A stretch of 64,000 nt of DNA from an uncultured archaeon (GCA_964428495.1 CAYRXY010000002.1:19784-83783), one strand, 5' to 3'. Shown: positions 60,469 through 64,000, counted from the first letter of the stretch. The notes: generated by a model from the letters alone, not told the origin. Translations and numbers: made by a program.

Positions 60469-60588
60469 GGTTGACGACCAAAGCGGGCGGGGTACGCCGG
60501 TTCCCATTCCGAACACCGAAGCTAAGCCGCCCAGCGATCTCGTGAGTACTGCGCCATCTGGCGTGGAAAAGCGAGGACGTCGTCAACC
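60469..60588 (+). rRNA. rrf: 5S ribosomal RNA
   Basis: 120 nt. Helix I GGTTGACGAC/GTCGTCAACC. Conserved CCCATTCCGAACACCGAAGCTAAGC and GAGTACTG. About 60% GC against an AT-rich background. Confidence 0.95.
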
Positions 60589-61206
60589 GCTTTTCATCCA
60601 TTCGTTCTCCCATTTTTTGATTTCATCTTCTGAAAGTATTTTTATTTTCGGTTTCTTTTTTTCTCCATACTTTGGTCTAAGAAGAAATCCATATACAACA
60701 CCAGTGCCTAGCCCTGCAAGATGACCTAGATGAGCAACATTATCAGAACCGAAAATACCGATGAAATCTAATAATGCCCATATAACTAACGCAACCAACA
60801 TAGGCATTGGAATTCCCATTACCCATACCACCAGTCTTGGTCTAAGAATTCCAAGAGTTCCGAGAATACCGAATATAGCTCCAGATGCACCGATTATCGA
60901 TGAATAAAACAATAATCCAACAAGTCCAGATGCAATTCCTGACGCAAAATAAATCATTAGAAATCTCTTGCTTCCTATTACACTTTCTAGAATAATTCCA
61001 AAGAGTAGTAATGCAAACATATTGTAAAATATATGGCTCAGCGAATTCAAGCTGTGAACGAACATATAAGTAATTAAGCTCCAAGGAGCATTCAAGATAT
61101 TCTTAGAGGAAAGTGCTAAATAATTTATAGTTTGGGGAAATACCAGCTCTAAAACATAGACAAAAATGCATAATAAAAAGATAGATATAGTCGCTCTATA
61201 TTTCAT
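60583..61206 (-). CDS. rhomboid-family intramembrane serine protease
   Basis: GASGAIFGILG (catalytic Ser) and AHLGHLAG (catalytic His). Six TMs. Confidence 0.9.
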   Translation of the reverse strand: MKYRATISIFLLCIFVYVLELVFPQTINYLALSSKNILNAPWSLITYMFVHSLNSLSHIFYNMFALLLFGIILESVIGSKRFLMIYFASGIASGLVGLLFYSSIIGASGAIFGILGTLGILRPRLVVWVMGIPMPMLVALVIWALLDFIGIFGSDNVAHLGHLAGLGTGVVYGFLLRPKYGEKKKPKIKILSEDEIKKWENEWMKSG

Positions 61207-61334: not shown

Positions 61335-61409
61335 ATACTTTATTTTGAAGGATTCAGAATAAATAAAAAACTTTTAATTTGTAGAGAATTATTATTTAAA
61401 CTATCGTTT

Positions 61410-61484
61410 GCCTCGGTGGTGTAGTCCGGTCTAGCATACAGCCCTGTCGAGGCTGTGACCCGGGTTCAAATCCCGGCCGAGGCG
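61410..61484 (+). tRNA. tRNA-Asp (anticodon GUC)
   Basis: Acceptor GCCTCGG/CCGAGGC, anticodon stem CAGCC/GGCTG with loop CTGTCGA, T-arm CCGGG TTCAAAT CCCGG. Confidence 0.93.
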
Positions 61485-61517
61485 TGACCGAAAACATTTA
61501 GTTTCCAAACACATTTT

Positions 61518-61640
61518 GGGCCCGTAGCTCAGTCTGGACAACACAGCATTTCGATACAACCTTTTTGAAAGGTTGTGTTGGGATAATAGAGCGCCGGCCT
61601 TTTAAGCCGAGTGTCGCGGGTTCGAATCCCGTCGGGCCCA
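61518..61640 (+). tRNA. tRNA-Lys (anticodon UUU) interrupted by a roughly 49-nt intron in the D-loop
   Basis: Acceptor GGGCCCG/CGGGCCC. D-stem GCTC (61527-30)/GAGC (61589-92) separated by 58 nt. Anticodon loop CTTTTAA, T-arm GCGGG TTCGAAT CCCGT. Intron about 61538-61586. Confidence 0.8.
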
Positions 61641-61697: not shown

Positions 61698-62231
61698 ATG
61701 GAGTTAGTGTTGGATGACGGATGTCGAATATATAAGTCATATCCTGAAGATTGGAAAAAAATAAAGGAAAGAATAATTGAAATTGATGAAAAAGCCTTTG
61801 AGAAACGATATAGAGATACTGAAAAAAGTATGGAAAGAATATTCACGGATTCTGAAAATCTGAACTTGATAGCATATGCTCGAGATAAACTATGCGGATA
61901 TTCTATTGGAGGGAGTATGAAAAAATTTAAAGACAGAAGTAAAAAACCGTGGATATATCCATCCTTAGAAGGAATAGACGATTCCGATGTATTCTATATA
62001 TACGGGACTGGTATTGATCCTAAATTTCAGGGGAATGGAATAGGTACAAAACTAAAGAAGGTCCAAATAGATCTTGTAAAAAGCATGGGGTACAAGGCTA
62101 TGACTTCTCATGCCCTGAACGATATCATAAAACACATAGAGGGGAAATTTGGTTTTAAAGAGAAAGGTTATATAGAAAAAGAAGGAACTTATATGGTGCT
62201 AATATTTAATGATGAGAATGATAACAAATAA
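61698..62231 (+). CDS. GNAT-family N-acetyltransferase
   Basis: Acetyl-CoA motif GIDPKFQGNGIGTKLKK. Confidence 0.85.
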   Translation: MELVLDDGCRIYKSYPEDWKKIKERIIEIDEKAFEKRYRDTEKSMERIFTDSENLNLIAYARDKLCGYSIGGSMKKFKDRSKKPWIYPSLEGIDDSDVFYIYGTGIDPKFQGNGIGTKLKKVQIDLVKSMGYKAMTSHALNDIIKHIEGKFGFKEKGYIEKEGTYMVLIFNDENDNK

Positions 62232-63132
62232 AGACTTTGAGATCATTAGAGAAGAAATCAAAAAGCTAAAAAAAAGGAAACCGAAGATAATGATACAAAT
62301 TCCTGAAGGACTTAAATCGGAGGCTACAGAACTTATAGATACATTATCTGAATTTTGCGAACCAATACTCGAACTAGATCCATGTTACGGTGCATGCGAT
62401 ATCAGATGTGAAGAGGCAAAGATAATGAAGTGTGATGCTATTTTACATATCGGGCATATTAAATTCTACAGAGATATTGACTGTGATATTCCGATAATAT
62501 ATTATCCACTAAATATTGATGTTGAAATTCCAGAAGAGGAGCTAGAAAAAATACCGTTCAAAAGGGTTGGACTTATTTCCACGGTTCAACACATATCTAG
62601 TCTTGAAAAAATAAAAAATGCTCTCGAGAATAAGAACAAGAAAGTCATAATAGGTGGTGAAATTTTGGGTTGTTGGACTGCTAACGTAAAAAGAATTGAA
62701 AAAAATGTTGATTGTTTTCTACTAGTTTCGAGTGGTAGATTTCATGCACTAGGAATAAAAACAGAAAAACCTGTCTATATCTTTGATCCAGAGAGAGGTA
62801 TCGTAGAGGAAATTGATAAAAGTGAAGAAATAAGCCGCTTGAAAGTATTGTATGCAAGACTGGATAAATTAAAGAATTCAAAGAAGATTGGACTGATAGT
62901 ATCAAGAAAACCAGGTCAGTTTTACAACGATTGGAAAAAAATAAAGGAAAAATTAGAGAATATGGGTAAAAAGGTTTATGTTCTGATGATGGATTATATT
63001 ACAAATGATAAATTAATGGGTCTAGACGTGGACGTTCTAATTAATACGGCGTGTCCTCGCTTGTTTGATGATCACCTTGATAAACCATTAATAAACCTAG
63101 AAGATTTGCTAAAATTTATTTCTTCTAAGTAG
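62209..63132 (+). CDS. dph2: diphthamide biosynthesis radical-SAM enzyme Dph2
   Basis: IQIPEGLKSEATELIDTL, DPCYGACDI and ILHIGH motifs. 307 aa. Confidence 0.88.
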   Translation: MMRMITNKDFEIIREEIKKLKKRKPKIMIQIPEGLKSEATELIDTLSEFCEPILELDPCYGACDIRCEEAKIMKCDAILHIGHIKFYRDIDCDIPIIYYPLNIDVEIPEEELEKIPFKRVGLISTVQHISSLEKIKNALENKNKKVIIGGEILGCWTANVKRIEKNVDCFLLVSSGRFHALGIKTEKPVYIFDPERGIVEEIDKSEEISRLKVLYARLDKLKNSKKIGLIVSRKPGQFYNDWKKIKEKLENMGKKVYVLMMDYITNDKLMGLDVDVLINTACPRLFDDHLDKPLINLEDLLKFISSK

Positions 63133-63134
63133 TA

Positions 63135-63150
63135 CCGAAATCTTTAAACA
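63135..63150 (+). promoter_or_regulatory. candidate BRE/TATA (CCGAAA-TCTTTAAACA) for the downstream structured RNA
   Basis: Purine-rich BRE-like element plus an A/T box centred about 28 nt upstream of 63174. A second TATATAAT box at 63163-63170 is an alternative. Confidence 0.3.
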
Positions 63151-63173
63151 CTATCATATCTCTATATAATTTA

Positions 63174-63287
63174 GGTTGTAGGAGGGAATATCCAGGGTTT
63201 ATTACTTACCTTTTTAGGTAAGTGTAGTACCGAAGTTCCTTCGGGATACTTTGGTACTTAGGGCTTTGGATCCTAGTTCCTACAGCC
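63174..63287 (+). ncRNA. candidate structured ncRNA, 114 nt, family unknown
   Basis: Four nested/adjacent helices read directly: 10-bp closing stem, 8-bp stem, 8-bp hairpin with UUUU loop, about 13-bp hairpin with UUCG tetraloop. 44% GC versus 26% in the flank. G-U pairs valid only on the + strand. Confidence 0.5.
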
Positions 63288-63320
63288 GGTTCTAAAACAT
63301 TTAAATTTTCTCTTGAAGAA

Positions 63321-63530
63321 ATGAGTTTTATGTTCGGTAATTTTATTCATAAAGCTAAAGAGTTTATTCGCCAGTGTAGAAGAGTATTGATGGTCGCAAC
63401 AAAGCCAGACTTAGAAGAATTTAAAACCTCTGTAAAAATAACTGGTCTCGGCTTTTTAGTCATAGGAATCATAGGATTTATAATATCCATGATATTTTTT
63501 ATAATTCAAAACCATATAGGTCAAGTATAA
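63321..63530 (+). CDS. secE: preprotein translocase subunit SecE (Sec61-gamma)
   Basis: EFIRQCRRVLMVATKPDLEEF then a single TM GLGFLVIGIIGFIISMIFFII. Precedes spt5, as is conserved. Confidence 0.85.
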   Translation: MSFMFGNFIHKAKEFIRQCRRVLMVATKPDLEEFKTSVKITGLGFLVIGIIGFIISMIFFIIQNHIGQV

Positions 63531-63539
63531 GGTGGGTAG

Positions 63540-64000
63540 ATGATAGTAGCAGTTAGAACTACAACAGGTCGAGAAGCAGCTGTTGTCGAATCATTAGTAA
63601 TAAGGGTAAAATCAAGATTGATGAAAGAACCTGATGCGGCTGACGAAGTTAAAATAAAGGTTGGTGCATTCAAAGGAAAAGAAGGAATTGTTAAGGAAAT
63701 AGATAGTGATACCGAAGAGCTTAAGATAGAGGTCAAGGATTCTGGTCAAATGATAACATTAGAGAAAAAGGATGTAGAGGTCGTTAAAAAGGCTAAACAA
63801 CCTATAAAGGCAATACTTCAAACAGAGGATCTCAGAGGATATATATTCATCGAGGCTGATGATGAAGATAAAATACTAGAGCTAGTTAAAGGTGCTCCAC
63901 ATATCAGGGGGCTGGTAGGTAAGGAGGTAAGTATTGATCAGCTCGAAAGATTCATAGTACCAGAAAAACAAACAATAAAGATAGAACCTGGAGATATCAT
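63540..64000 (+). CDS. spt5: transcription elongation factor Spt5 (NusG homologue), 3'-truncated by the window end, with an insertion in the NGN domain
   Basis: Not in the track (runs off the window). SD AAGGTGGG. MIVAVRTTTGREAAV..LRGYIFIEADD..VKGAPHIRGLVG NGN motifs. Open frame to 64000. Confidence 0.88.
   Translation, partial: MIVAVRTTTGREAAVVESLVIRVKSRLMKEPDAADEVKIKVGAFKGKEGIVKEIDSDTEELKIEVKDSGQMITLEKKDVEVVKKAKQPIKAILQTEDLRGYIFIEADDEDKILELVKGAPHIRGLVGKEVSIDQLERFIVPEKQTIKIEPGDI

Follow-up and report, generated by a model that had tools for sequence, protein, structure and literature searches.

A conserved structured RNA gene closed by a bulge-helix-bulge stem in uncultivated Aenigmatarchaeota

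The locus and its fold

The gap between dph2 and secE in this archaeal genome raises the question of whether an RNA is made from it, and if so which part of that RNA is the product. An earlier note on the same DNA had described the segment at 63174–63287 (+), which lies between the dph2 stop codon and secE, as a 114-nt multi-helix RNA candidate that might instead be a 5′ leader of secE-spt5. The window referred to here is the whole stretch of DNA that was analysed, 64 kb (64,000 nt) in length, and positions are counted from its first letter. Its Dph2 is 99% identical to the Dph2 of a Candidatus Aenigmarchaeota MAG, and the host is an uncultivated archaeon of the Aenigmatarchaeota (DPANN). Pfam matches to Dph2, SecE and Spt5 agree with the flanking genes named in the earlier note, no ORF of at least 30 aa overlaps 63133–63320 on either strand, as that note had also held, and its GC content of 44% was reproduced (0.44). 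The features of the locus are as follows.

62209–63132, dph2, encoding Dph2 (Pfam)
63130–63148, + strand, promoter with BRE-like ACCGAAA and TATA-like TCTTTAAA in the block TAGTACCGAAATCTTTAAA, conserved in four genomes
63174–63287, + strand, the element
63288–63309, + strand, candidate 3′ trailer GGTTCTAAAA, then a T-tract at 63306–63309; overlaps the secE promoter (TTTAAA at 63300–63305)
63321–63530, + strand, secE, encoding SecE (Pfam), with spt5 (Spt5, Pfam) next

An Rfam search over the window called one 5S rRNA and five tRNAs, all outside the element. The 5S rRNA gene (60470–60588, +, 80.6 bits) stands alone, with 16S and 23S genes not linked to it within the window, and its 3′ end overlaps by 6 nt the 3′ end of a convergent rhomboid-protease ORF (60583–61206, minus strand).

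On the + strand the element has a minimum free energy (MFE) of −56.2 kcal/mol against −30.2 ± 3.5 kcal/mol for dinucleotide shuffles (z = −7.44), and none of 200 shuffles folds as well, in keeping with the proposal of a structured RNA. The reverse complement reaches only −38.1 kcal/mol, 18 kcal/mol worse, as expected if G·U pairs are selected on the + strand, and all wobble pairs are G·U on that strand, as the earlier note had observed. Covariance models score the + strand far above the − strand in every homologue described below (101.9 vs 18.1 bits for the window copy). Fold energies and model scores therefore both favour the + strand, and the strand call made previously was right.

All four helices proposed before are present at their stated positions: P1 (63174–63183 with 63278–63287, 10 bp with one G·U), hairpin A (63204–63211 with 63216–63223, loop UUUU) and hairpin B (63227–63239 with 63244–63257, UUCG loop, 1-nt bulge). 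P2 as then drawn (63190–63197 with 63264–63271) can form, but in the MFE fold it competes with a better arrangement, in which G63184–A63187 pair with U63271–U63274 and two 3-nt bulges lie on opposite strands at 63188–63190 and 63275–63277. The 10-bp outer helix is then separated from a 10-bp inner helix by a 4-bp helix with a 3-nt bulge at either end, the outer bulge on the 3′ strand and the inner one on the 5′ strand. Two 3-nt bulges on opposite strands with a 4-bp helix between them define the bulge-helix-bulge (BHB), by which the splicing endonuclease of archaea recognises its substrates (PMC7714728, PMC6379350). With this 3-4-3 geometry and both flanking helices present, the stem as modelled in the window is therefore a strict hBHBh′ motif. 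The two-part stem of the earlier description is present, but the region between P1 and P2 is this motif and not an internal loop. The parts of the element are listed below.

63174–63183, + strand, outer helix, 5′ strand GGUUGUAGGA, pairing with 63278–63287; predicted transcript start at or adjoining 63174
63184–63187, + strand, central 4-bp helix, 5′ strand GGGA, pairing with UCCU at 63271–63274 in the MFE fold
63188–63190, + strand, 5′ bulge AUA in the MFE fold; predicted cut after U63189
63190–63276, + strand, predicted excised product of 87 nt (inner helix and hairpins A and B), from the predicted BHB cuts
63191–63200, + strand, inner helix P2, 5′ strand UCCAGGGUUU, pairing with 63261–63270
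63203–63224, + strand, hairpin A, 9 bp, loop UUUU at 63212–63215 (MFE fold)
63226–63258, + strand, hairpin B, 14 bp with one bulged U, loop UUCG at 63240–63243 (MFE fold)
63261–63270, + strand, inner helix P2, 3′ strand GGGCUUUGGA (MFE fold, alignment)
63271–63274, + strand, central 4-bp helix, 3′ strand UCCU (MFE fold, alignment)
63275–63277, + strand, 3′ bulge AGU; predicted cut after G63276, placed as for the 5′ bulge
63278–63287, + strand, outer helix, 3′ strand UCCUACAGCC (MFE fold, alignment)

An 11-mer, GTAGTACCGAA, occurs twice on the + strand, at 63129–63139 in the promoter block and at 63224–63234 in the 5′ strand of hairpin B. A weaker likeness is seen in two of the homologues described below, L006 and L007 (TAGTWCCAAAA vs AGTAATACCGAA), and is absent from the third, L034, and the shared 11-mer may be due to chance or to a small duplication.

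Homologues, promoter and independence from secE

Relatives were drawn from contigs coding for the next-closest Dph2 and Spt5 (61–75% identity). Copies were found in three other Aenigmatarchaeota assemblies, giving four with the window, and the Dph2 proteins of the genomes that bear them are 61–66% identical.

L006, 1580–1701, between dph2 and secE
L007, 2276–2406, between dph2 and secE; this contig overlaps L036, which runs on into secE
L034, 11384–11495, found by a three-sequence covariance model (window, L006 and L007)

The L034 copy is more diverged, scoring 59 bits (E = 2e-14) with the three-sequence model and 92 bits with a four-sequence model. Covariation in relatives, to which the earlier note had looked as a check, is present: standard pairs fill 97.9% of the pair cells when the three sequences are aligned, and 11 pairs are altered on both sides, a level reached by 0 of 500 shuffles, and pairing drops to 27–53% when partners are slid by 1–3 columns as a control. 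The covariation rests on four sequences from one narrow clade. The outer helix differs in sequence in each genome with its pairing kept (GGUUGUAGGA, GGUCGCGGGA, CCCGAUUAUAGGG and AGUUGCAGGG), and 5 of its 13 pairs are altered on both sides. In the central helix, which reads GGGA/UCCU in the window, GAAG/CUUU in L006, AAAG/CUUU in L034 and CAAG/CUUU with one C·U in L007, three of the four pairs are altered on both sides, compensatory changes that amount to about one evolutionary split (the window versus the other three). The spacing between outer and inner helix is exactly 7 nt on each strand in all four copies and the 5′ bulge is always 3 nt long, whereas junctions and loops vary in length.

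The inner parts are kept in sequence as well. The core of the inner helix (UCCAAAG/CUUUGG) is retained in all homologues, and hairpin A is the best-conserved arm, with ACUYACC, a U-rich loop and GGURAGU in 4/4 copies and a U-A pair replaced by C-G and U·G. Hairpin B persists as an arm of 14–17 bp; in L034 it has 14 bp of almost wholly different sequence and a UUUU loop, so in this arm it is structure and not sequence that is kept. Nearly all of the inner RNA is helical, with almost no conserved single-stranded nucleotides. Read from the alignment, an outer helix kept in pairing only, around inner parts kept also in sequence, is the signature of a putative processing stem around a functional cargo.

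The RNA was found only in these four assemblies, all of which encode a long Spt5 (204–211 aa). More distant dph2 or secE-spt5 loci of Aenigmatarchaeota and Woesearchaeota (L001–L003, L038, L039, L042, L043 and L045) gave no match to the R1/R2 models and no strong BHB. Scanning metagenome contigs with the DNA pattern TACCGAAGTTN{0,1}CCTTCGGG returned 26 hits, all unrelated on inspection, and the DNA-pattern scan of viral contigs gave one chance hit without a model match. Two contigs of near-identical strains (L046 and L047) end before the RNA. Each locus carries one copy. No other was found in the rest of the window or in ~190 kb of related DNA, and the 10–12-mers that recur in the window are chance matches, except for the 11-mer that also occurs in the promoter of the element.

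The length of Spt5 is itself unusual, as in this clade the protein has 204–211 aa (window 63540–63998, +; L006, L034 and L036) rather than ~146 aa. A KOW-like motif (Pfam) lies at residues 35–61, before the bulk of the NGN match (72–139), an order that points to an insertion within the NGN domain or ahead of it. The L11-L1-L10-L12 genes that usually come after spt5, as in L038 and L042, are not found there in the genomes with long Spt5.

The BRE/TATA-like element that the earlier note had placed about 28 nt upstream is present and kept at all four loci, with TTTAAA at 63143–63148 in the window, 25 nt before G63174. The 19-nt promoter block (TAGYACCRAAAWCTTTAAR) has a mean pairwise identity of 83% over the four loci compared with 38% for the adjacent spacer, and spacer and flanks together are 35–42% identical. 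From the end of the TATA-like element to the first base of the outer helix there are 24–26 nt in 4/4 loci. A similar block, ACCGAAAACATTTAG (ACCGAAA...TTTAG), precedes a tRNA-Lys gene in the window, and the promoter is of the strong, stable-RNA type. On the other side of the element, (G)GTTCTAAAA follows the outer stem at 63288–63297 in the window, at ~1705–1714 in L006 and at ~11501–11510 in L034, where it is kept although no secE is there; it lies farther downstream in L007 (~2428–2437). It may serve as a 3′ trailer or termination signal, or be a remnant of the secE promoter region. The T-tract at 63306–63309 could, from its sequence, terminate a short transcript; the sigma-70/terminator scan called no intrinsic-terminator pattern and is uninformative for an archaeon.

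The suggestion of a secE-spt5 leader is contradicted by two observations. Firstly, in L034 neither dph2 nor secE adjoins the copy, which is found ~2 kb downstream of spt5 with a minus-strand gene on either side. T-tracts immediately follow its stem and the next gene is convergent, with none downstream in the same orientation, so that a role as secE leader does not fit the element. Secondly, secE has its own TTTAAA 24–25 nt before the likely start codon in all three syntenic loci (window, L006 and L036), and its mRNA appears to be leaderless. In the window this TTTAAA (63300–63305) lies 24 nt 5′ of the second ATG (63330), which may be the true secE start rather than 63321.

The same evidence bears on a related explanation, that the element is a BHB intron in the 5′ UTR of secE-spt5 whose excision remodels the leader and regulates secE, as in Haloferax HVO_1309. 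There is precedent for such an intron (PMC7714728), and the element is directly upstream of secE in three of the four genomes. Set against this are the position of the L034 copy with no co-oriented gene after it, the leaderless spacing of secE's own TTTAAA, and a spacer between RNA and secE that ranges from ~35 nt (window) to ~170 nt (L007/L036); moreover, the supposed intron is conserved and the supposed exon sequence is not. We regard a 5′ UTR intron as improbable, with only a small chance of being correct. Within the long spacer of L007 (2407–2458) and L036 (1–143), TCTACTAAAGA is directly repeated, a hint that sequence was duplicated or inserted locally downstream of the RNA gene. Taken as a whole, we are highly confident that the element is a real, conserved and independently transcribed structured RNA gene.

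The earlier note had recognised no known family, and this held for the window and for its homologues. An Rfam search at gathering thresholds placed no family on the element, a permissive search of 63100–63340 returned only NrrF (15.9 bits against a cut-off of 60, a meaningless score), and the RNAs of L006, L007 and L034 matched no family. ARAGORN called no tRNA at the element, and with the Rfam result this upholds the view that it is neither tRNA-like nor 5S-like, nor an SRP or RNase P RNA. Reading of the four sequences found no C/D boxes (RUGAUGA, CUGA), tandem G·A pairs or conserved boxes, and ACA occurs only in the window copy, where it is part of the paired outer helix, so the absence of a C/D or H/ACA layout was likewise borne out. 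Nor were K-turns, SRP helix 8, hammerhead or riboswitch cores seen on reading the sequences. Riboswitches and ribozymes built on a three-way junction (purine, TPP, hammerhead) were considered and rejected, as the junction strands here are 0–4 nt long, A/U-rich and unconserved in length or sequence. A permuted tRNA was also rejected: ARAGORN made no call at default settings on tandem-duplicated inner RNAs, and a lowered threshold gave one spurious hit in one of the four sequences.

Another candidate is a known RNA (tRNA, SRP RNA or an rRNA fragment) in disrupted or permuted form that could be recognised only once it had been excised and circularised. Other archaea have permuted genes for tRNA and SRP RNA with flanking BHBs (PMC3978253, PMC4731332), and the host genome has non-canonical tRNA introns. 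However, beyond the silence of ARAGORN on the duplicated inner sequences, no Rfam family reaches E < 10 on any homologue bar the chance NrrF match, the helices are almost perfectly paired, and inspection revealed no conserved loop motifs of SRP RNA, 5S rRNA or tRNA. A hidden member of a known family therefore seems to us very improbable.

A tRNA-Lys intron in the same genome

The window also holds a natural control for the BHB geometry. A tRNA-Lys(UUU) gene at 61518–61640 (+), 1.6 kb upstream of the element and missed by both ARAGORN and Rfam, carries a 49-nt intron in its D-loop at a non-canonical site (61538–61586); this GC-rich stretch starts 33 nt after tRNA-Asp (61409–61485). The BHB of the intron comprises the helix GUCU/GGAU, bulges GGA and AAU, and an inner helix of CACAAC type, CAACAC/GUGUUG, and it shares its strand layout with the element: outer helix, 4 nt, 3 nt and inner helix on the 5′ strand, and inner helix, 4 nt, 3 nt and outer helix on the 3′ strand. 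The splicing endonuclease cuts a BHB after the second nucleotide of each bulge. When the intron is cut in this way, ARAGORN calls tRNA-Lys(ttt) with a canonical D-loop. The same rule therefore puts the equivalent cuts in the element after U63189 and G63276. The presence of this intron further implies that the cell has and uses splicing enzymes, also at non-canonical sites, and it is from the tRNA-Lys gene that we infer EndA and an RtcB-type ligase in the organism; a search of the 64-kb window for an RtcB signature found none.

Chance occurrence of the motif depends on the length of the flanking helices. A lax scan for BHB geometry (helices of at least 5 bp, G·U allowed) gave ~50 sites per strand in the window, the same as in shuffled sequence. 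When both helices had to be at least 7 bp, the element was the sole site in the window, with helices of 10/10, and shuffled windows gave ~2 sites per strand, none of them far above the 7/7 limit. The L034 homologue, with 12/11, has the sole comparable site in ~190 kb of related DNA.

Kinship between the element and the tRNA-Lys intron was tried and rejected, as their local alignment is no better than those of shuffled sequences (97–315 of 1000 shuffles as good). This also bears on a DNA-level or selfish origin, be it an inverted-repeat mobile element, a dph2 terminator or a free-standing mobile copy of a BHB intron. Long inverted repeats and a position that differs between genomes would suit such an origin, but besides the insignificant likeness to the intron, wobbles are G·U on the + strand only with the − strand folding 18 kcal/mol worse, every locus has just one copy, with no further ones in the window or the ~190 kb of related DNA, and a conserved promoter stands at a fixed distance. 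We give a selfish or DNA-level element the slightest of chances.

It is also possible that the element makes a stable linear small RNA of ~114 nt in which the 7 × 7 region is an internal loop or protein-binding site and is never cut. In L006, L034 and L007 the MFE structure has a symmetric internal loop (6 × 6 or 3 × 3) and not a BHB; only in the window copy is the BHB the MFE. The A/U-rich 4-bp helix is weak, and the BHB conformer of the homologues lies 3.9–7.3 kcal/mol above their MFE. L006 and L034 can form a strict BHB, and L007, with one C·U, a relaxed motif. Against an uncut RNA, the leading four nucleotides on the two strands of this region have kept their complementarity despite three double changes, and the spacing is fixed at 7/7 where other unpaired stretches differ. 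The outer helix shows the evolution expected of a processing stem that is thrown away, the same geometry is processed in tRNA-Lys of the same cell, and the loop has no K-turn or loop-E signature. On these grounds we think a linear, unprocessed RNA unlikely. By analogy with known BHB substrates, we judge instead that the closing stem is probably a functional BHB, so that the mature product would be the excised, probably circular inner RNA.

Proposed processing and significance

The explanation that we favour overall, with reasonable though not strong confidence and again by analogy, is an independent gene whose ~114-nt precursor would be opened by EndA to release a core that is probably circularised. 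Transcription would start at the first base of the long outer stem. The earlier proposal of a 114-nt RNA stands as far as a conserved structured RNA gene is concerned, but the 114-nt species itself is most likely a precursor and not the RNA that accumulates. EndA would cut at both bulges, after U63189 and G63276, giving an 87-nt core (63190–63276); the predicted products of the homologues are 95, 98 and 85 nt. The ends of the core would be held by the inner helix, so that an RtcB-type tRNA ligase would most likely join them, with a predicted back-splice junction from G63276 to A63190 (...GGAUCCUAG/AUCCAGGG..., equivalent to ...CUUUGGAUCCUAG/AUCCAGGGUUU...). The stem remnants would be ligated from U63189 to U63277 (predicted exon junction ...GGAGGGAAU/UUCCUACAGCC...) into a short hairpin of 27–33 nt, non-conserved in sequence, and discarded. 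The ligated core would be Y-shaped, a covalently closed RNA of three arms and U-rich loops. When folded as a circle, the window core forms three arms at −35.1 kcal/mol, and all four predicted cores fold as circles with three arms and U-rich loops. The outer stem would then be only a processing signal, much like an rRNA processing stem, and the inner RNA the functional product. The cargo is nearly all helical and lacks conserved single-stranded nucleotides. This speaks against a role as guide RNA, riboswitch or ribozyme and agrees with a stable scaffold, and the most plausible role on this model would be a nuclease-resistant protein-binding scaffold.

To our knowledge, the natural substrates known for the archaeal splicing endonuclease are tRNA introns, rRNA processing stems, two mRNA cases and one permuted SRP RNA. 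Stable ORF-less rRNA introns and the C/D-box-containing tRNA-Trp intron illustrate that an intron can be the useful product. In vivo excision and circularisation has been described for substrates outside tRNA (rRNA stems, a 5′ UTR, cbf5 mRNA and permuted SRP RNA; PMC7714728, PMC4731332, PMC6379350), and the steps proposed after transcription are drawn by analogy from tRNA introns, rRNA stems, the HVO_1309 5′ UTR intron and Thermoproteus SRP RNA, for all of which in vivo excision and circularisation is documented (PMC7714728, PMC4731332, PMC12558985). A small RNA gene that is flanked by a BHB and stands alone was nowhere described in the literature that we searched.

Each known system resembles the element in part. 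Archaeal tRNA and rRNA BHB introns share its hBHBh′ geometry, the predicted use of EndA and an RtcB-type ligase, and the expectation of a circular excised piece; unlike them, the element has no host gene and has its own promoter, and its exons are only a 10–13-bp stem beginning at the transcription start, unconserved in sequence, that would leave a hairpin of 27–33 nt. The stems of archaeal 16S and 23S pre-rRNA are likewise long flanking helices with a BHB whose flanks covary and whose enclosed RNA is the conserved product, released there via a circular intermediate, whereas the putative cargo here is 85–98 nt, has no rRNA similarity, belongs to a separate transcription unit and gives no sign of later linearisation. 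The circularly permuted SRP RNA of Thermoproteus is, like the element, neither tRNA nor rRNA and matures through a BHB and circularisation (PMC4731332), but the circle there restores a known RNA and the predicted product here matches none, permuted or not, as far as our tests reached. The 5′ UTR intron of Haloferax volcanii HVO_1309 (PMC7714728) and the cbf5 mRNA intron of Crenarchaeota extend EndA substrates beyond tRNA and rRNA and yield small circular RNAs, as we propose; both lie inside mRNAs, where the spliced mRNA is the presumed point, and the element is not tied to a downstream gene, as the L034 copy makes clear. Finally, the tricRNAs of metazoans are stable, structured non-coding circles that the tRNA splicing machinery makes from a BHB-like motif (PMC4536317), with the difference that they come from genuine eukaryotic tRNA genes, and the element involves no tRNA.

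The element represents a new RNA family, so far in four uncultured genomes, and its proposed maturation would be a new variant of BHB-dependent processing. It adds a conserved non-coding RNA to the DPANN archaea, in which RNA biology is almost unexplored. These archaea cannot be grown alone. The exact junction sequences predicted above are a sharp prediction that can be searched for in metatranscriptomes. If the proposed processing is true, the self-contained unit of promoter, textbook BHB and structured cargo would be a new use of the splicing machinery and a natural "circRNA expression cassette", a design copied in vectors of the tricRNA and Tornado type. Whether archaea can have dedicated genes for small circRNAs, with the tRNA-splicing machinery as the biogenesis route of a free-standing functional circRNA, is to our minds evenly balanced; if so, this machinery would be more than a device for intron removal and rRNA maturation.
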